Shown here: positions 6,075 to 61,674 of the stretch, one piece after another
How the letters are laid out: each line of letters begins with the position of its first letter
How positions within the stretch are numbered: position 1 is the first letter of the stretch
Source: a virus
Lineage: Duplodnaviria; Heunggongvirae; Uroviricota; Caudoviricetes
Reading direction: 5' to 3' (one strand)
IMG/VR virus record: IMGVR_UViG_2700989400_000004
Location: 6,939 to 70,938 of that record
Length of the DNA: 64,000 nucleotides
Program-made: the position numbers and the translations under genes
Notes under the pieces: generated by a model
Told to the model about the DNA's origin: nothing
The model's database searches: none
The model's input: only the letters and a program-made list of their open reading frames with translations

Positions 6075-6983
6075 TTAACTTTGCAGATAGCCGCATTCTC
6101 GCCGGAATTGCGTGATTAATGACGCGGTCAGTGGTGTCTGGCGACTATCACGCCGCTGAATCAAATAATAGGCCGCTTTCGGTAAAATTTCGCTAACCGG
6201 CAACATCACCAGCCCCTGTCCGTGCAAGGGATCGCAGCCCATTTCTTCAGGCAGTATGCTGAGAAAATCGCTTTTTGCCACCAGACTGATACAGGCTGAG
6301 AACGTCTCGCAGACTACACCGACCTGTGGCGTTTGCGCCTGATCGTCAAGCAATTCACTCAACTGTTTGTAGTAGCTGCCGTGTGGCGTCGGCATTGTCC
6401 AGCTGTAATCCAGTAACTGTTTGATCGAACGGGCACCAATGGCGGGGTGTCCCGGGCGGCAAAAGATCGCGAATTGCTTTTCCAGTAATTTCTCAAAAGT
6501 AAATTCGTGGTCGTACGGTCCCTGATAATAGGTATTGATGGTGAAATCCAATTCTCCCTGACGCAATTCATTAATCATCGACACCAGTTGCCCTTCCATA
6601 ATGCGTACTTTTACCTGCGGATGCTGCTGATGAAAACGAGATATGACAGCTGGCATCAGACTGCGGGAAATACTGGCCCCCATGCCGATATTAATCTGCC
6701 CTGCCAGTTGCCCTTGTCGTTGGCGAATATCCTCTTGGGCTGCGCGCAGTTCTTCAAGAATAAGACTGGCGTGCTGATAAAAACTTTCACCGGCATCAGT
6801 TAACGTCACGCCTTTACTACGGCGAAAAAAGAGTTGCGCCGCTAATCCTTCTTCCAGCTCCTGAATAGATTTACTCAGTGCCGGTTGCGACATATTCAAC
6901 ATTCGGCTCGCTCCGCGAATGCTGCCCTGACGAGCCACTTCAACAAAAGCACGAATTTGATGAATTTTTACCTGAAAAGCCAT
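6075..6983 (-). CDS. abgR: LysR-family transcriptional regulator AbgR
   Basis: 302-aa ORF with N-terminal LysR HTH (…IRGASRMLNMSQPALSKSIQELE…) and substrate-binding domain; divergent from the abgA operon. Confidence 0.9.
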   Translation of the reverse strand: MAFQVKIHQIRAFVEVARQGSIRGASRMLNMSQPALSKSIQELEEGLAAQLFFRRSKGVTLTDAGESFYQHASLILEELRAAQEDIRQRQGQLAGQINIGMGASISRSLMPAVISRFHQQHPQVKVRIMEGQLVSMINELRQGELDFTINTYYQGPYDHEFTFEKLLEKQFAIFCRPGHPAIGARSIKQLLDYSWTMPTPHGSYYKQLSELLDDQAQTPQVGVVCETFSACISLVAKSDFLSILPEEMGCDPLHGQGLVMLPVSEILPKAAYYLIQRRDSRQTPLTASLITQFRRECGYLQS

Positions 6984-54443: not shown

Positions 54444-54592
54444 TATTTGATCTCCTTCGCTGTTAACACTACGTATAAGGCTTTATTCGCGGCGCTCCAC
54501 ATTTCGGCATCGTGAAGCATTTCCGCTACTGCCAGTTTGAATTGAAGCGCCTGAATAACCATAATGTCACCTCCGATTGTATACATTTTGTA

Positions 54593-54883
54593 TTAATGGT
54601 ATCGAACTTTATCTAACGGGATCTCCCAAAGCTGGCGCGGCTGCGTTGCGTGGAAGTAGTTGCCGCTTTCATTTTCCTGATACCATTTTGTCGCGCCCTT
54701 GCGACGTTCTTTAACGCTATTTGATTTGCATCTTTCCTCATTTGCAAAGCGAATAGCTTTTTCCACTTTATCAATCTTCTGTATGTGCGGGCCTTCGTCT
54801 TGTTCGGCTGCCCGCTTCATCCGGCGGCGCTTCCGTGCATTTAATTTGCTCTCACAGTTACCGTAAATGATCTTCGCATTCAT
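54593..54883 (-). CDS. putative N-like antitermination protein (arginine-rich motif)
   Basis: First gene of the leftward operon after the repressor; ARM-like RKRRRMKRAAEQ; AAGGAG SD. Confidence 0.35.
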   Translation of the reverse strand: MNAKIIYGNCESKLNARKRRRMKRAAEQDEGPHIQKIDKVEKAIRFANEERCKSNSVKERRKGATKWYQENESGNYFHATQPRQLWEIPLDKVRYH

Positions 54884-55321
54884 AATCTTTTCTCCTTAGT
54901 TAAAATCATGTTTGCTACATTTCAGTAGCGACCAGATTGTTAAAGAGAATGGCTTAACATCGTTCAACTAATCCCGCAATCATCGCCGTTTCCGGTGTGA
55001 CACCACTCAATCCAAGTGATCTGACTCGTCGCCTTGCGTGCGGTTTCGTGGGGGATGTAACGCTTTAAACACCCCATGCGCCTTGTTATCAGTGCCGCTT
55101 TCGGTCCCACATCGGGGAGTTACTCCACGGTTGACAAGGTGTTAAGCCTGATTTTTAAAGTGCCTGGAAGGTGTTTTTGTTTCCTGTCTCCTTCCTTTGA
55201 CTCGCAATATACGCCCTGTGATATGTCGAGTCAATCCATTTTGTATACTTTTTTAAAATATTTTCTATCTCATTGATATTTAAATGATAAAACCCGTTCT
55301 CGGTTTACATTTTGGTGCTTT

Positions 55322-55348
55322 CTGGGCAAAGAAAAGCCGCCATCCGGC
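55322..55348 (-). terminator. intrinsic terminator after repressor gene
   Basis: GCCGCC-ATCC-GGCGGC hairpin with T-run on minus strand, 10 nt after repressor stop. Confidence 0.45.
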
Positions 55349-55357
55349 GGCTAATGT

Positions 55358-56005
55358 TTATGGCAGATTTACGATCTTCGCGTCCACCACCACGCCAATA
55401 ATTTTTGATTCAGGATTTAGCGGGATTGGTGGATACAACGGATTAAGCGAACGTAAAAGCCTTTGACCTCCATCAATAATCAACTGTTTAAACGTCGGCG
55501 TTTGCCCTTCCTCCAATTGGGCTATAACCAGTTTGCCGTCAATAGCTGGCGCGTGTGGATCAACAAGTATCATCGTTCCCGCCGGGATGCTCAATCCTTG
55601 CGGCGCGTTCATCGATTCACCTTTTGCAACCAGCCAATAACTATCATCCGAACAAATCACGCTAGTGTTAACGTGCGGTAATGATGCGCGTTTTGCTTCT
55701 TCCATGTAGTTTCCTGCGTCTTTCCAGTCAATCACCGGATAACGCCCTACGTCGAGCGGTGGCGCTCCCGGCAGTGTATTAGAAAGTGAATCATCAATAA
55801 CCATCCCATCATGTGTGACCGTAAACTGCCGACGACCAAGCGCCCGCATGATCCGCGCAATATCTTCCAGGTTAGGCTCACGACGACCATTTAGCCAGTG
55901 TGATAAGCCGCCCTTTGTGATCCCCATGAGATCCGCCAATGAATCCTGGCTCATACCTTGCGCCCGCATGAGTTGTTTAGCTAAGTCATACCATTTTGTT
56001 TTCAT
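55358..56005 (-). CDS. cI-like repressor (HTH + LexA-type S24 peptidase domain)
   Basis: N-terminal HTH (…QDSLADLMGITKGGLSHWLNGRREP…) and C-terminal autocleavage domain (…VAKGESMNAP…AGTMILVD…); divergent from replication operon. Confidence 0.8.
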   Translation of the reverse strand: MKTKWYDLAKQLMRAQGMSQDSLADLMGITKGGLSHWLNGRREPNLEDIARIMRALGRRQFTVTHDGMVIDDSLSNTLPGAPPLDVGRYPVIDWKDAGNYMEEAKRASLPHVNTSVICSDDSYWLVAKGESMNAPQGLSIPAGTMILVDPHAPAIDGKLVIAQLEEGQTPTFKQLIIDGGQRLLRSLNPLYPPIPLNPESKIIGVVVDAKIVNLP

Positions 56006-56313
56006 GTCGCTACCCTATCGCCCTAAAAAGTTTGATGCAAGTCACAAAATGTATTTTTCAAGTCTTGACCTAAAAACGCCATTCTGTAAACTTGCAGACA
56101 AGGTAAAGCCAGACTTGCAAGGATGCAAGAAAAAAGATAAGGGAATAGCACAAAAAGGCGCATACCTTAAAAGCTCTTTAAAAACCCGGTGTCGCTGCGA
56201 AGCGAAAAACAAATATCACGCAACGGCGGGATCTGTTGAGCGGTCAATCACTGCTATCTAATGCTAATGGGATACCCGCCCGCGCGTTCATTTTAACCAT
56301 AGGAGAAAAATCA
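56006..56313. promoter_or_regulatory. divergent immunity promoter/operator region
   Basis: 308-bp gap between divergent repressor and rightward operon; repeated CTTGCAAG-type palindromic half-sites (56036-56130); no cro-sized ORF found. Confidence 0.5.
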
Positions 56314-56568
56314 ATGAGTATGCACATGATGACTGAAGCCTGGAAAGTGGAACTTAACAGCCCGATTCAAAAACTTGTCTTAATGGCTTTGGCTGAAAAG
56401 GCGGATAACCGCCGCCACGCCAGGGTGTCACACCAAGAAATCGCAAAAATGTGTGAACTTCCTGTAAATACGGTAATGGTTGCTATCGACGGATTAACGC
56501 ACAAAGGATTTATTTGTAACCCTTACCCGGTAAATGACGTTTACCTGGTAATGCTGCCGGAGGAATGA
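56314..56568 (+). CDS. HTH DNA-binding protein, first gene of rightward operon (Cro/CII position)
   Basis: 85 aa from MSMHMMTEAW…; AGGAG SD; HTH-like …HQEIAKMCELPVNTVMVAIDGL…. Confidence 0.5.
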   Translation: MSMHMMTEAWKVELNSPIQKLVLMALAEKADNRRHARVSHQEIAKMCELPVNTVMVAIDGLTHKGFICNPYPVNDVYLVMLPEE

Positions 56569-56571
56569 TCC

Positions 56572-57639
56572 ATGAAGTGGTTTAAGCATGATAGCGATGC
56601 GAACCGCGATGAAAAACTTCAAAACGTTTTGCTCGATTATGGTCTGGAAGGATACGGTCTTTATTGGTACTGCCTCGAACTAATCACTTATGACGTAGAT
56701 CAGCATAATCTCACTTTCGACCTTCGACATGACGCGAGAATCATCGCGCGAAATGTCGGTTCGACTGAAAAACGTGTAGAAGAAATGATGAAATACTTCA
56801 TCGAAATTGGTTTATTTGAATGTTCTCAAGGCCATATAACATGCTTAAAGTTATTGAAAAGGCTGGACCAATCAATGACTTCTAAGAGTGGTTACAGAGC
56901 TGCTATAAATGCAGCAAAAGAACAATTCAAATTAGAAAAGTTAATCAACCCAACGCCAAAAGGTCATGATAGGGTCATGACCGGGTCATGGCAGGGTCAT
57001 GAATTAGAATTAGAAGAAGAATTAGAAGAAGAAATAGAAAAAGATATATACACTTCGTGTATTAGCGAAAATGAACAAAAAACGGTCAATCAGGGGGGTG
57101 ACTTTCAGATAAGCGAAGCCGCCTTGCGTTGTCTGGCTTTCTACAACGAAAAAGCAGGATGCAAATGTCGTGACGCTAAACCATTCATCGAACTACTGAC
57201 AGAAACAAAAACACGTAAGGCATATACGGAGGAAGAGATCACATTAGTAATTGAGTGGGCTTTAACACAATGGCATAGCCGGAGTGGAGTACCTAAGCCT
57301 ATCAACATTTGCCGGGTAACTAAGTTTGATGGGTATCTGGCTGATGCTGAACAATGGCGAAGAGTTACAGCTACTGTTAACGCTGCTGTCGTGGTATCAG
57401 CATTTAACCAGACATTTGACGGCCTGTTACCGCCTGCCGAACTGGATCGGGATTTGGAACGTAAGATCTATGCGTTCACTGACTACCTGAAAGACAAAAG
57501 CATCACTGGCTTTATCGCTTACTTTGAAGCGTTCAAAAACACGGCTTCAGATTTTTACTTCGGCAATGGCTTTACCGCGACACTTGATTTCCTACTTAAA
57601 CCAAAAACGCTACGTGACACGCGCGCGGGCGTTCTTTGA
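56572..57639 (+). CDS. replication initiator / replisome organizer (O-like)
   Basis: N-terminal MKWFKHDSDANRDEKL… typical of phage replisome-organizer N-domains; conserved phage replication C-terminal region; contains iterons. Confidence 0.75.
   Translation: MKWFKHDSDANRDEKLQNVLLDYGLEGYGLYWYCLELITYDVDQHNLTFDLRHDARIIARNVGSTEKRVEEMMKYFIEIGLFECSQGHITCLKLLKRLDQSMTSKSGYRAAINAAKEQFKLEKLINPTPKGHDRVMTGSWQGHELELEEELEEEIEKDIYTSCISENEQKTVNQGGDFQISEAALRCLAFYNEKAGCKCRDAKPFIELLTETKTRKAYTEEEITLVIEWALTQWHSRSGVPKPINICRVTKFDGYLADAEQWRRVTATVNAAVVVSAFNQTFDGLLPPAELDRDLERKIYAFTDYLKDKSITGFIAYFEAFKNTASDFYFGNGFTATLDFLLKPKTLRDTRAGVL
56961..57050 (+). repeat. putative replication origin: four iterons plus AT-rich tract inside O-like gene
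   Basis: GGGTCATG repeated four times at 11-bp spacing (56962-57001), then aattagaattagaagaagaattagaagaagaaatagaaaaag. Confidence 0.6.
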
Positions 57640-57772
57640 CTATCCATTATTACCAAAAAACCAAAATTACCCACAAAACAAGCTCACCAGCGAGCTAAAT
57701 CGCATGGGGTGCTACACTTGCTTACCTTTTTGCGATTAGCTCGTTAGAAAGCGATTGAGGGAGGATTTAGCT

Positions 57773-57874
57773 ATGAACGGTAAACGCATGTTCGCCCTGG
57801 CTTTCGCGATCGCGATGGCTATCGCTGTTAACGTGATGCTGTTCGGCGGGTTGTACCTGCTTGCGCATCCATAA
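57773..57874 (+). CDS. small hydrophobic membrane peptide (33 aa)
   Basis: MNGKRMFALAFAIAMAIAVNVMLFGGLYLLAHP; GAGGGAGG SD; preceded by long imperfect inverted repeat (57691-57743). Confidence 0.4.
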   Translation: MNGKRMFALAFAIAMAIAVNVMLFGGLYLLAHP

Positions 57875-58025
57875 CTACCCAGCCTGATTAAATTCGATTT
57901 TAAGCCACTTTTTAGCGCCACTGACGCAATAAGACACTGCAACATGTGCAAACGTGTTACGCGGTGGGATTTTGCGTTGTAGCGCGTCTGAGGCGTTATA
58001 TAGAAAATTAAGAAAGGAGGTATAT

Positions 58026-59081
58026 ATGATTGCTACTTATCATATGAAACTCAATTGTAAGGACACGCAATTACTGTCTGTTAATAATCTGGTTTCTGAA
58101 CTTAAGATTGATAGACTTAAATCATTTGTTAAATATTCTGATCTTTACGGATTTGAGGAATACAAGGATTTTATTATTGATGGTGATGATGTGTATATCA
58201 CACCTATAACGTTTATTAGATTCGTTACACCTGGTAAATATAGACATTATGAATATAATGAAAATTGGGTTAAGCCAGTTATTGAATCTTGTGGATTAGT
58301 TGACTTGCAAGATGTCTTTAATAAATATTCAAATAATACCAAAAAAGATAGTCCTTACGCTTATAATTATATTTTATGGTGTAACAACTATGTTGAAACG
58401 AGTGATACTCCTGGTCGATGTTCTGTGTATGTGTCAAAAGAAGATGCTGAAAAGTATAAAAAATGGTTGTTCGTTACTCGCGGAGTATCAATAGAAAAAC
58501 TATGGGTAAGGTTGTTCCATTCAAGCGATATTGCAGATCCAGATACGTTTTTAGCTGAACACCTCAATAATGATGAGTTTACCATTGATTTAAATATTGA
58601 ATATTTTATAGTTAAAACAAATTATGGATATGAAAGGTATATTAGCGATAAGATAGCAGAAAAGTATCATATATGGGGTGAAAGTAAAGGGCTTAGTAAT
58701 AATTTTGAGTGCGGGAATTATAACGACATAGAAAACTTTATTAAATTAAAAAGCGACAAGGATGTAATTGAGGAAATAAAAAAGGAATGCGACGCGAAAT
58801 TATCAGAAATGAGCGGTCATTGTAAAAATATGATTAGAAAGCGTTATGAACACGCTGGTTTAACTATGTATGAAAAACTAAAGGGTGTTAAATTAATAAG
58901 GCAATATCCTGTTAATGTTGCTGGCAATAAGTATTTTATCGATGGCTACGATCCTGTGAATAATGTTGCTGTAGAAATTGATGAATCACATCACAAACGG
59001 CAAGTAAAAAGCGATGCGATAAGACAAAAATGCATTGAAGATTATTTGGGGTGCAAGTTTTTTCGTTGTGCTATATCCTGA
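58026..59081 (+). CDS. AT-rich gene: protein with C-terminal restriction-endonuclease-like domain (candidate defence/abortive-infection protein)
   Basis: 351 aa from MIATYH…; perfect AGGAGG SD; visibly AT-rich versus flanks; C-terminus …YFIDGYDPVNNVAVEIDESHHKRQVKSDAIRQKCIEDYLGCKFFR… resembles DUF559/Vsr-type endonuclease fold. Confidence 0.6.
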   Translation: MIATYHMKLNCKDTQLLSVNNLVSELKIDRLKSFVKYSDLYGFEEYKDFIIDGDDVYITPITFIRFVTPGKYRHYEYNENWVKPVIESCGLVDLQDVFNKYSNNTKKDSPYAYNYILWCNNYVETSDTPGRCSVYVSKEDAEKYKKWLFVTRGVSIEKLWVRLFHSSDIADPDTFLAEHLNNDEFTIDLNIEYFIVKTNYGYERYISDKIAEKYHIWGESKGLSNNFECGNYNDIENFIKLKSDKDVIEEIKKECDAKLSEMSGHCKNMIRKRYEHAGLTMYEKLKGVKLIRQYPVNVAGNKYFIDGYDPVNNVAVEIDESHHKRQVKSDAIRQKCIEDYLGCKFFRCAIS

Positions 59082-59115
59082 TGTATACAAAATGTAAACC
59101 GGAGGAAATAACGTT

Positions 59116-60234
59116 ATGTCACAAAGAAAGATCAGCGATGAACAACTGATCGCTGAGTACGAGAAGGGGAAAACTTACAAGCAAATAGCCGAAGAATATG
59201 GAATGGCAAAACGCAACGTCGAACGGCTGGGCGCACGGCTGGCGAAGCGCGGTTTAATATCCACACGCCGCGCGCCTGGTTTTGGTGTCAATGGTGAATC
59301 ATTGCTCGTTGATAAGGATGGCAATGTGATTATGCGCTGGATTAAAACAGCACGTGATCGCGATGAAATGGAAAGGCTAATGCAAGCGGCTTGCGATGCA
59401 TTCACTGAAGAGATACCCCGCGCGGAGGCCGTGCCAGTGCCTGAGATTGATTTCCAAAAAAGCCTGGCCCTTTATCCGGTGTTCGATCTTCATATCGGTG
59501 CACTTGCGCACAAGGCGGAATGCGGCGAGAGCTACGACACCGGGATCGCTGAACGCGTACTAAATGATTTCTTCGACTACGCGGTAGGCACTGCGCCAAT
59601 GTCTGAAAAGGCTGTTTTGCTGTTGGGTGGGGATCTACTTCATTCTGATGGGATGATCCCGGTTACACCAACAAGCGGTCATATTCTTGATCAGGATAGT
59701 CGCTACGCAAAACTTGTTTACGTGGCGATCCGGTCGGTCCGGCGGGCGGTCGGGAAGATGTTACTAAATCATAAGGACGTCGAGATCCAGGTGCTTAGCG
59801 GAAATCATGATCAATCGGGGATGATTTGGCTACGTGCGGCGCTGGCGGCTTTTTACGAAGATGAACCACGCGTGACGGTTGATGTGTCCCCTGCTATCGT
59901 CCACCACACGCAGTACGGCAAAACATTCCTTGCCTATCATCACGGGCACACTATCAAAAAACCCGAAAATTTGTTGGCGGCCTGCATCTCTGACTGGCGG
60001 GAGGATTTCGGCAAGTCGGCGGCGGTTTACGCCCACTGCGGGCACTGGCACCACCAACGGCTAATTGAATCATCGTTAGGCGTTGTTGAGTATCACGGCA
60101 CGTTAGCGGGTAAAGACGCTTATTCAACGAATGGCGGCTGGCGGTCGCGGCGGCTGGCGGCGGTAATAATTTACAGCCCGGATTATGGGGAAATCGGGCG
60201 CTTTGTTTATTACCCTGAATATCCCATTTTGTAA
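59116..60234 (+). CDS. HTH domain fused to calcineurin-like metallophosphoesterase
   Basis: N-terminal HTH (…KTYKQIAEEYGMAKRNVERL…); phosphoesterase motifs DLHIG, GGDLLH, GNHD, GHWHH; CCGGAGG SD. Confidence 0.6.
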   Translation: MSQRKISDEQLIAEYEKGKTYKQIAEEYGMAKRNVERLGARLAKRGLISTRRAPGFGVNGESLLVDKDGNVIMRWIKTARDRDEMERLMQAACDAFTEEIPRAEAVPVPEIDFQKSLALYPVFDLHIGALAHKAECGESYDTGIAERVLNDFFDYAVGTAPMSEKAVLLLGGDLLHSDGMIPVTPTSGHILDQDSRYAKLVYVAIRSVRRAVGKMLLNHKDVEIQVLSGNHDQSGMIWLRAALAAFYEDEPRVTVDVSPAIVHHTQYGKTFLAYHHGHTIKKPENLLAACISDWREDFGKSAAVYAHCGHWHHQRLIESSLGVVEYHGTLAGKDAYSTNGGWRSRRLAAVIIYSPDYGEIGRFVYYPEYPIL

Positions 60235-60252
60235 ACCGGAGGCAATACCATA

Positions 60253-61674
60253 ATGGTGACTGAGCAAATAAACTCATTACGCCAGGAACGGGAAGCGGCT
60301 GTGATAGGCGGCCTCCTGTTGGGCGGGCTTACCCCTAACGCGCAAGATGTTCTTGCCACGCTCGATCCTGAAGTCTTCACCATTCCACTATATAAACGAG
60401 CGTTTGAGATCATCCGGGCGCAAGCCAGAAACAGAAACCTTATTGACGCGCTGATAGTCGGTGATGAAATCGGTAGCGAAAATTTCATCCCGTTAATGCA
60501 AACGGCGCGGTCGTGTCCATCTGCTGCCAACCTGAAGGGGTACGCCACGCTATTGCAGGAGGAATACCAGCGGCGGCAAATGTTGGAACTGATGGAGGAT
60601 ATCCGCTACAAACTGGAAACCGGGACGCTAGAAGTTGTCAGAGAGACGATGAAATATTTTGATTCCCGGTATTCAAAATTAAAAACAACGAAAGACAAGA
60701 TTATTCCGGTGCTGTTGCGCGACGCGGTACAGGAATATACGGAAGTCTTAAGTAAACGTATGGAATGTGGTGTCAATTCTGACAACATCAAAACAGGGAT
60801 CGAACCACTCGACGAAATGTTAGGCGGTATTAACGCTACTGATCTGGTGCTTATCGCCGGACGCCCTGGGTCTGGTAAATCGGCGTTGGCGTTGGCAATT
60901 GCCCGCGCGGCGGCTGAACGTCCATACCCTGGCGGAGAAGGCCAACGGGTCGGCGTTTTGCTGTTCACGCTTGAAATGTCGCTCGATCAGATGACTGAAC
61001 GCGCGATCGCTGGCGCTGGGAACTTATCAACGGATTGCCTACGTAATCCGGTAAAACTGGACGACGAAGGATGGGCGCACGTTGCGCAGGGAATGAGCGC
61101 ACTTGCCGATCTCGACGTGTGGATTGTTGACGCATCGCAGTTAACGGTCGAGGAAATACGCGCCACCGTCGAACGGATGAAACAGGACCATCCTAACCTG
61201 GGAATGGTAATGATTGACTACATCGGGTTAATGAAGCTGGCTAAGGCCGAACGTCATGATCTCGCGGTAGGGCAATTGTCGTGGTCATTGAAAATGATGG
61301 CGAAAGAGTTGCGCGTGCCAGTGGCGGCGCTGGCGCAATTATCCCGCCGCGTTGAAGAACGACCGAACAAGCGCCCGAACAATTCCGATCTGCGTGATTC
61401 CGGTAATCTGGAACAAGACGCGGACCGGATCATCATGGTCTACCGAGACGGCTACTACAACGAACAATCAGTTGCCCGCGAATACATGGAGATCATCGTT
61501 TCAAAAAACCGTCACGGGAAAACGGGGACTGTTTACCAGCGGTTTGACGATAACGGCAATATCATTCCATGCGACCAGGCCCGCGCCGCGTCCGCTTGCA
61601 TCCAGTCAATGCAACAACGTCCGGCGACAAGCCGATTCTCCCCACGAAATAACCAGAATAACGCATCTTTTTAA
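60253..61674 (+). CDS. DnaB-family replicative helicase
   Basis: Walker A …LIAGRPGSGKSALALAIA…, …DSGNLEQDAD…, …KNRHGKTG…; CCGGAGG SD. Confidence 0.85.
   Translation: MVTEQINSLRQEREAAVIGGLLLGGLTPNAQDVLATLDPEVFTIPLYKRAFEIIRAQARNRNLIDALIVGDEIGSENFIPLMQTARSCPSAANLKGYATLLQEEYQRRQMLELMEDIRYKLETGTLEVVRETMKYFDSRYSKLKTTKDKIIPVLLRDAVQEYTEVLSKRMECGVNSDNIKTGIEPLDEMLGGINATDLVLIAGRPGSGKSALALAIARAAAERPYPGGEGQRVGVLLFTLEMSLDQMTERAIAGAGNLSTDCLRNPVKLDDEGWAHVAQGMSALADLDVWIVDASQLTVEEIRATVERMKQDHPNLGMVMIDYIGLMKLAKAERHDLAVGQLSWSLKMMAKELRVPVAALAQLSRRVEERPNKRPNNSDLRDSGNLEQDADRIIMVYRDGYYNEQSVAREYMEIIVSKNRHGKTGTVYQRFDDNGNIIPCDQARAASACIQSMQQRPATSRFSPRNNQNNASF

Follow-up and report, generated by a model that had tools for sequence, protein, structure and literature searches.

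A conserved gene for a predicted 33-residue membrane peptide between two conserved hairpins in mEp021-like coliphages, and the question of a type I toxin

Is a short hydrophobic open reading frame (ORF) behind a long inverted repeat enough to recognise a type I toxin in a phage genome? This question is raised by a locus in the IMG/VR virus record IMGVR_UViG_2700989400_000004 (Caudoviricetes), of which we analysed positions 6,939 to 70,938. This stretch of 64,000 nucleotides is referred to here as the window, and coordinates are those of the window unless stated otherwise. The window is an Escherichia coli prophage of the mEpimmI (mEp021-like) group. A 33-codon ORF lies in it between an O-like replication initiator gene (56572-57639) and an AT-rich gene (58026-59081), exactly where the original prediction had placed it, and that prediction had likened the ORF and its upstream repeat to a small membrane toxin with a structured leader and antisense control. 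Our analysis suggests a different answer. The locus is probably an accessory early gene of an mEpimmI-type temperate coliphage for a 33-residue inner-membrane peptide, and the two hairpins that flank it, H1 and H2, would be cis elements of the plus-strand transcript. The elements of the locus are as follows.

57640-57690, plus strand: A/C-rich, nearly G-free untranslated tract directly after the initiator's stop codon, conserved in 34-39 homologues
57657-57674, plus strand: upstream copy of an 18-nt direct repeat, AAATCNAAAATTANCCAC
57682-57752, plus strand: hairpin H1, with an outer helix GCU/AGC, a main stem AGCGAGCUAA / UUAGCUCGUU and an inner stem UCGCA/UGCGA
57709-57721, plus strand: conserved apical motif of H1, GUGCUACACUUGC
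57757-57764, plus strand: Shine-Dalgarno (SD) sequence, GAGGGAGG
57773-57874, plus strand: gene for a putative 33-aa single-pass membrane peptide, MNGKRMFALAFAIAMAIAVNVMLFGGLYLLAHP, from ATG (57773) to TAA (57874)
57890-57908, plus strand: degenerate downstream copy of the direct repeat, whose counterpart in relatives is well preserved
57915-57985, plus strand: hairpin H2, a long irregular RNA hairpin with helices GCGC/GCGC, GACGCAA/UUGCGUU, CACUGC/GCGGUG and AACAUGU/ACGUGUU

Judged by comparative sequence analysis, the ORF is a real, conserved gene under purifying selection. We compared 34 distinct homologues of the region (400 nt each), drawn from phage records and from IMG/VR contigs. The ORF was intact in 33 of them, and the exception had an ATT start together with extra non-conservative changes. 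Indels were present in both flanks but absent inside the ORF, and the ATG, the SD and the stop codon were conserved. Variation was concentrated in third codon positions, with a nucleotide diversity of 0.059, 0.060 and 0.222 for the three positions (12, 11 and 25 variable sites), the third being about four times as diverse as either of the others. The median pairwise ratio of nonsynonymous to synonymous substitution rates (dN/dS) was 0.13 over 396 pairs, and a distant copy in the contig L069 differed from that of the window by a dN of 0.21 and a dS of ~2.1. Two details of the original prediction were borne out: translation gave exactly the peptide that had been quoted, and the SD is present, 8 nt before the ATG. 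It reads AGAGAGGA in most relatives, and its columns are near-invariant across homologues.

Two other frames were considered. The minus-strand frame shares the wobble positions of the ORF and is open across it; it had no start in 8 of the 34 homologues and an internal TTG alone in the rest, and its length varied from 32 to 71 aa. It is the plus strand that holds the ATG, SD and stop in register and is therefore the coding strand. An overlapping 71-aa plus-strand ORF (57524-57739), called by PHANOTATE in relatives, was rejected because one-base loop indels at ~57706 break it. The 33-aa gene itself is called by PHANOTATE, as a hypothetical protein, in mEp013, mEp515, mEp044, mEp010, mEp554 and MagusPhagus. 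A copy identical to that of the window is present in NCBI assembly GCA_001420135.1 (contig LIVK01000004.1), and the E. coli 'putative membrane protein' KDW32481.1 is the same gene in an older record, with a 42-aa upstream extension.

What does this gene encode? The consensus peptide, MDGKHVFALAFAIAAAIAVNVALFGGLFLLVNP, consists of a basic N-terminus (MNGKR), a hydrophobic helix of approximately residues 6-31 and a C-terminal (N/H)P. Its sole charges, K4 and R5 (or H5), are N-terminal, and N20, G25, G26 and most of the helix are invariant among the called proteins. The best 19-aa Kyte-Doolittle window scored 2.44 in the peptide of the window and 2.4-2.7 in the family. With one helix of at least 20 residues and a flanking asymmetry of charge, the peptide has the predicted features of a single-pass small membrane protein.

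No family match for the peptide was found in Pfam (E <= 10), PHROG, NCBIfam or PADLOC, the sole NCBIfam match being a chance one to the membrane segment of FtsN (E = 0.29). A word-indexed search of 5.8 billion proteins returned only this peptide family; from 1.84 billion cluster representatives, a profile search recovered the family and two low-complexity false matches only. In the protein homologue search, which needs at least 40 aa, a query extended by 11 upstream in-frame codons returned close relatives alone, and tblastn of the peptide against phage records was nearly blind because the low-complexity filter masks the query. The peptide was not found in the supplements of PMC11893012 and PMC11188072. 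Identity with the published haemolysis-inducing protein 'Ipe' of mEp021 was ruled out, as Ipe is an ORF of 72-83 aa.

A homologue with 64% identity, MDNKRMFALVFAFVMAIVVNAILFGGLFMLVNP, was detected in L069 and L070. This contig is unrelated to the mEp021-like phages; it carries more than 18 co-directional small ORFs and shows faint similarity to rV5-like phages. Upstream of its peptide gene is a long hairpin of another kind (z = -4.6), downstream is a strong intrinsic terminator, and neither H1 nor H2 is present. A further copy of the gene occurs in L071, where a MarR-type gene follows it. The copies in the unrelated L069/L070 backbone and in L071 therefore indicate that the peptide gene is an autonomous unit that moves between phage backbones. 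The family, one of predicted small membrane proteins, is uncharacterised; mEp021-like phages and at least one unrelated phage carry it as an accessory early gene. In addition, L069 (2560-2661 and 3128-3165) holds a second, unrelated 33-aa hydrophobic ORF (MLLEMLMNPIIFMSLGFVIVCLIAGFILSNMRD), and its terminator lies directly after the peptide gene.

The same data bear on the view that the ORF is a regulatory leader ORF, in which the act of translation would control RNA structure or Rho access downstream. The ORF is short, lies between two structured elements and is upstream of variable genes, all of which would suit such a role. However, its amino-acid sequence is under strong purifying selection (the dN/dS given above); the 64% identity is maintained in an unrelated backbone where a terminator follows, leaving nothing downstream to regulate; and a hydrophobic helix with an invariant Asn and a GG pair belongs to the level of the product. 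We find this view hardly credible.

The second question concerns the inverted repeat upstream of the gene. It is present as described, with arms CGAGCTAAATCGCA (57691-57704) and TGCGATTAGCTCG (57731-57743) that pair over 8 + 5 bp, leaving a single bulged A and a loop of 26 nt; the repeat search reported it in part only, owing to the bulge. The long hairpin that it had been said to form was confirmed, but its extent had been drawn too short, as outer pairs carry the stem to 57682-57752. On folding, the 85 nt from 57676 to 57760 reached -30.6 kcal/mol (z = -4.25), and none of 200 dinucleotide shuffles was as stable.

H1 is also a feature of the relatives. RNAalifold on the whole intergenic alignment gave a weak consensus with the inner stems out of register, and we therefore folded each sequence separately. 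Of 39 distinct homologous sequences, 36 had H1 as their minimum-energy fold. Across variants H1 comprises an outer helix of the GCUC/GAGC type, a main stem of 11 bp (AGCGAGCUAAA/UUUAGCUCGUU), an inner stem that varies and, at the apex, a stem-loop whose motif is better kept than the inner stem. In alignment A4, 87% of H1 cells were paired (92% in the main stem), compared with 29-48% for slid partners. One variant, L071, showed a double change from GAGCU/AGCUC to GAGAU/AUCUC as well as a C-to-U change that keeps a G-U pair. Intergenic p-distance (0.125) was lower than the synonymous rate (0.23-0.38), and the leader is therefore constrained. An Rfam cmscan of 54500-60500 at E <= 10 gave no match within 57600-58030. 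Upstream of H1, the tract at 57640-57690 resembles, in composition, a Rho-loading (rut) site. A boxA-like decamer, GTTCTTTGAC (GCTCTTTGAC in relatives), at 57631-57640 adjoins this C-rich, G-poor tract and overlaps the 3′ end of the initiator gene (final codons and stop).

An inverted repeat may also act as DNA, as part of an origin, as an operator for a dimeric protein or as the frame of a sigma-54-type promoter. The repeat is immediately downstream of the initiator gene, its loop is more conserved than its inner stem, and the loop motif TGGTGCTACACTTGCW fits GG-N10-GC with TTGCW in the window and most variants. In the lambda origin, a palindrome lies beside an AT-rich region. However, a complete lambda-style origin was identified inside the initiator gene, where four GGTCATG(A/G) iterons with an exact 11-bp spacing (56962-57002) are directly followed by an AT- and purine-rich stretch (57001-57050, GAATTAGAATTAGAAGAAGAATTAGAAGAAGAAATAGAAAAAGATATATA) that also encodes an acidic ELELEEELEEEIEKD linker. 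The same iteron pair is present in 32 related loci. This segment, 56962-57050, is the probable replication origin and is arranged as lambda ori is in gene O. An origin function for H1 is therefore unnecessary, and this candidate role was dropped. A sigma-54 promoter in the H1 loop (GGTGCTACACTTGCT in the window) was rejected as well, the GG or the spacing being broken in 5 of 39 variants, in the PAR-type relatives described below and in both L071 copies. In addition, the arm and loop motifs occur once each in the 64-kb window, changes in the stem by which G-U pairs are retained (AGUGAG/CUCGUU in L071; AGCUUG in sequences of the Magus type) fit RNA and not duplex DNA, and the fold is on average more stable on the plus strand than on the minus strand (-27.4 vs -25.6 kcal/mol). 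A role of the repeat at the DNA level is thus very unlikely.

H2, the hairpin downstream of the gene, consists of four stacked helices capped by a GCAA tetraloop at 57948-57951. The 90-nt block that contains it is conserved ahead of unrelated cargo genes across the phage group. Among 32 distinct sequences (alignment A3), 86.7% of H2 cells were paired vs 34-50% for slid partners, a conservative count since the inner helices of eight sequences are out of alignment by one base. The covariation score was reached by none of 500 shuffles. Double changes were found at two pairs (G-C to U-A and C-G to A-U), and many one-sided changes are G-U compatible and keep pairing on the plus strand only, which favours H2 as a plus-strand RNA. 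The fold had a z value of -3.2 for the plus strand, compared with -1.9 for the minus strand.

Peptide gene and hairpins are separable. L069-type loci have the ORF without H1 or H2, and a minority of relatives (E. coli PAR, L045 2541-2901; L063; L067) have a 77-aa MarR/winged-helix gene in the slot of the peptide gene. These PAR-type loci retain, without the ORF, a weaker hairpin at the H1 position with other arms (AACGCGAUAA/UUAAUGCGUU) and a similar loop motif. A hairpin thus persists where the MarR-type gene replaces the ORF, indicating that it goes with the initiator flank and not with the peptide gene. L071 (917-1192) carries both genes, the peptide gene first and then the MarR-type gene. 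As further observations, a copy of a GTGCTA.ACTTGC motif lies ~30-60 nt upstream of the MarR-type gene, and the initiator of E. coli PAR has a different, HTH-fused (helix-turn-helix) N-terminus.

The exchange of modules may involve the 18-nt direct repeat as a recombination joint. In relatives, its two copies bracket the hairpin-plus-ORF module and are 235 nt apart (L003 4058-4075 and 4293-4310), and the same repeat brackets the MarR-gene module in PAR-type phages. At the end of one IMG/VR contig (L015 6760-7244) we observed an exact tandem duplication of the hairpin-plus-ORF module, with a period of 235 nt and 100% identity. The duplicated variant has ATT for ATG and lies between two copies of the direct repeat. 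This duplication may reflect either a genuine unequal crossover or an error of assembly.

With these elements in hand, the type I toxin-antitoxin reading can be weighed, taking the defining features of such systems from PMC8309996. Here, a membrane toxin would have its translation held off by the structured leader and an antisense RNA, and one candidate antitoxin would be a minus-strand RNA ending at the complement of H1 followed by a U/G-rich tract. Part of what had been proposed stands: the locus has a genuine small hydrophobic gene (33 aa, within the ~60 aa of type I toxins), a conserved SD and a conserved long structure just upstream. Other points in its favour are a minus-strand hairpin followed by UGUUUUGUGG, which was flagged by the terminator scan; a weak minus-strand promoter-like site (TAAAAT/GCGAAA) in the TTTTAAAATG start region of 17 of 34 relatives; the tandem copy of the module in L015; and the long hairpin that also precedes the unrelated L069 copy.

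The antisense control that had been proposed is not supported. No sigma-70-type promoter was found on either strand of 57300-58000 or on the minus strand to 58168 in the scan of the window, where 57640-58168 has no minus-strand promoter-like site, and a relaxed scan across the 34 homologues yielded no conserved promoter on either strand. The locus therefore offers no candidate for an antisense RNA unit, and the peptide gene has no promoter of its own. The weak site seen in relatives does not occur in the window; its spacer is 19 nt, its -35 hexamer has 3 of 6 matches, and it arises from the palindromic TTTTAAAATG at the start codon. The small minus-strand hairpin is short of one pair in about half of the variants. 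Mean dS was not depressed in the ORF (0.38, compared with 0.23 over the 3′-terminal 300 nt of the initiator gene), so that its synonymous sites lack the extra constraint expected from an overlapping antisense RNA. The SD is not consistently sequestered either. Its unpaired probability was 0.34 in the window and averaged 0.49 among variants (range 0.11 to 0.66), i.e. variable and not systematically low, and in most variants the 3′ end of H1 lies shortly before the SD.

The setting of the gene also differs from that of a toxin-antitoxin locus. The peptide gene is single-copy, confined to phages and prophages and co-directional with its neighbours inside an N-type antiterminated early operon. The peptide matches no known type I toxin model (Pfam at E <= 10, NCBIfam, PADLOC), the hairpin is kept where the MarR-type gene replaces the ORF, and the tandem copy, at a contig end, is 100% identical and has an ATT start. 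Thus, the type I toxin-antitoxin reading is not supported by any sequence feature examined, and we consider it improbable. These tests remove the argument from arrangement and do not bear on toxicity of the peptide as such, the one component of the reading that remains. A hydrophobic mini-ORF beside a hairpin is insufficient to call a type I toxin-antitoxin locus.

A bolder version, to which we give an equally low probability, is that the peptide gene and the two hairpins form a portable, self-contained cassette in which RNA processing, or an unseen minus-strand RNA with its end at the H1 complement and U-tract, gates a membrane-active peptide. If true, these phages would depolarise or re-programme the host membrane early in infection, and the locus would be an operon-embedded relative of type I toxins; the peptide would found a new family of small proteins, and the hairpins would be two cis-regulatory RNA motifs of a new kind.

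Where does the gene stand in the phage? A 431-nt region of the locus matches seven phage records (MagusPhagus, mEp013, mEp515, mEp044, mEp010, mEp554 and mEp021) at 76-84%. Among 5,426 complete E. coli genomes it is present in 35, at one place each and always in a prophage. The locus is kept across the group, in 7 of 7 phage records, these 35 E. coli genomes and ~40 IMG/VR contigs. A scan of genome contigs with the initiator protein gave distant relatives of its N-terminal domain in unrelated taxa alone and was of no use for the 3′ flank. Annotated neighbourhoods and domain scans of the window showed a gene order common to the window, the seven phages and the E. coli prophages:

first, an Erf gene
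second, an N-like gp17 homologue and a cI/LexA-type repressor gene, both on the minus strand
third, plus strand: an HTH_36 gene
fourth, 56572-57639, plus strand: the replication initiator (O-like) gene, Lin1244_N by Pfam (E = 3e-11), also matching the replication initiation / O-like families of PHROG
fifth, plus strand: the 33-aa ORF locus
sixth, 58026-59081, plus strand: the AT-rich variable cargo gene, with a C-terminal DUF559 domain (Pfam, E = 2e-4)
seventh, an exonuclease-like gene
eighth, a DnaB helicase gene

The cargo gene matches PADLOC mREase_II, a type II methyl-directed restriction enzyme (E = 4e-8), and its C-terminal domain is DUF559 / PvuRts1I-like. Related phages have unrelated genes in this position. 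The cargo gene may be a prophage-borne defence or exclusion nuclease in a variable slot.

Phages of the mEpimmI group are Nus-dependent, non-lambdoid gut coliphages, in which Gp17 antiterminates early transcripts at nut sites (PMC11893012). Of the published sites of mEp021, nutL is close to the repressor gene, nutR1 precedes gp17 and nutR2 follows gp32 (PMC11893012). In the window, a boxA-like GCTCTTTAAA followed by a small GCGAA-loop hairpin lies at ~56172-56215 (plus strand) and fits the published mEp021-type nutL, and a second boxA-like sequence, TCTCTTTAAC, at 54939-54948 (minus strand), upstream of the gp17-like gene, fits nutR1. Given a boxA/boxB pair that fits nutL on the plus strand, and an operon of the Gp17/nut kind, the locus is placed on an antiterminated early transcript.

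This setting brings in another explanation, namely that H1 and H2 are conditional terminators or pause sites that a nutL-loaded Gp17 complex reads through, with Rho loading at 57640-57690. The peptide gene would then be an incidental passenger between two sites that gate the cargo and helicase genes. A C-rich, nearly G-free tract starting at the stop codon, together with the boxA-like decamer at 57631-57640, makes a Rho-dependent, Gp17-suppressed site a reasonable candidate, as an alternative or as an additional role; UUUUAC follows H2 in about half of the variants, and the operon is known to need Nus factors and Gp17 (PMC11893012). On the other hand, no plus-strand intrinsic terminator was called in 57300-58300, the annotated terminators of the mEp records lie elsewhere, and H1 and H2 are irregular hairpins of ~70 nt with no U-run after either in the window. 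The decamer is within coding sequence, which perhaps drives its conservation. It differs from a lambda-type nut site in that boxA has one mismatch and the next hairpin is ~45 nt off, ~70 nt long and without an A-rich pentaloop. Strong purifying selection on the peptide would also remain unexplained, so that termination could at best be an additional role. As the explanation of the locus, it is possible but unlikely.

In the explanation that we favour, an early operon would run from near the repressor gene, past nutL, through the HTH gene, the initiator, the ORF, the cargo gene and the exonuclease-like gene to DnaB. The peptide would be translated from its own conserved SD. By the positive-inside rule, its short basic N-terminus would be cytoplasmic, and the Ala-rich helix, in which an Asn at mid-membrane and a GG pair are invariant, may serve self-association or docking onto a membrane protein. 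For a helix of this kind, the most likely action would be on the host membrane or a host membrane protein during early lytic growth. H1 and H2 would be cis-acting elements of the plus-strand early transcript, as RNase III-type processing or stability elements or as conditional pause or termination sites. As such, they would set expression of the peptide gene and of the downstream cargo and would not be the leader of a toxin-antitoxin module. In shape, both resemble RNase III substrates, with ~25-28 bp in H1, ~24-26 bp in H2 and small internal loops.

Several observations weigh against this explanation. Covariation in H1 is weak, the observed score being reached by 65 of 500 shuffles, and most of its stem positions never vary; 4 of 26 aligned variants have an uncompensated change at one and the same H1 base pair. 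The PAR-type hairpin is not significantly more stable than shuffled sequences (z -0.5 to -2.0). The ORF is omitted by the RefSeq PGAP annotation and by the mEp021 record. The putative roles of RNase III and Rho are read from shape and composition.

The locus adds to prevalent human-gut coliphages an uncharacterised family of predicted small membrane proteins, which has no Pfam, PHROG or NCBIfam model and is skipped by RefSeq annotation. In addition, it brings to light two conserved RNA hairpins, unmentioned in published descriptions, in the early operon that is antiterminated by Gp17/N in mEp021-like phages. Should the target of the peptide be a host membrane function, the gene would offer a compact tool and a way into early host takeover; otherwise, it would be an ordinary accessory phage gene.

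Compared with known systems, the locus is like the type I toxins ZorO, TisB, Ldr, Ibs, ShoB and Hok in having a one-helix peptide of ~30 aa and a structured RNA upstream of the ribosome-binding site (PMC8309996). It differs from them in having no detectable antisense or trans RNA partner and no promoter of its own, in its place within a phage early operon, in the lack of sequence similarity and in an uncharged C-terminus, with charges at the N-terminus alone. A second comparison is with MgrB, AcrZ, MgtS and PmrR, single-pass E. coli peptides of 30-50 aa that bind larger membrane proteins and typically have polar or small-residue motifs in their helices. The peptide described here is likewise small and predicted to be single-pass, with a motif of polar and small residues in its helix; in contrast to these chromosomal genes, most of which have regulated promoters of their own, it is phage-borne.

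For the hairpins, one counterpart is lambda nutR-tR1, where boxA, rut sites and boxB precede a Rho-dependent terminator that is read through by N. The likeness includes a C-rich, G-poor tract after a stop codon, an RNA hairpin, an N-type operon and a boxA-like decamer nearby, but a boxB is far smaller than H1, which has no A-rich pentaloop, and the published nut sites of mEp021 are elsewhere. Another counterpart is provided by the early transcripts of T7 and lambda, which have RNase III processing hairpins between early genes. Although there is no sequence similarity to these and little covariation support for H1, the locus shares their shape, with long irregular intergenic hairpins of ~25 bp that flank cistrons in a polycistronic early mRNA.

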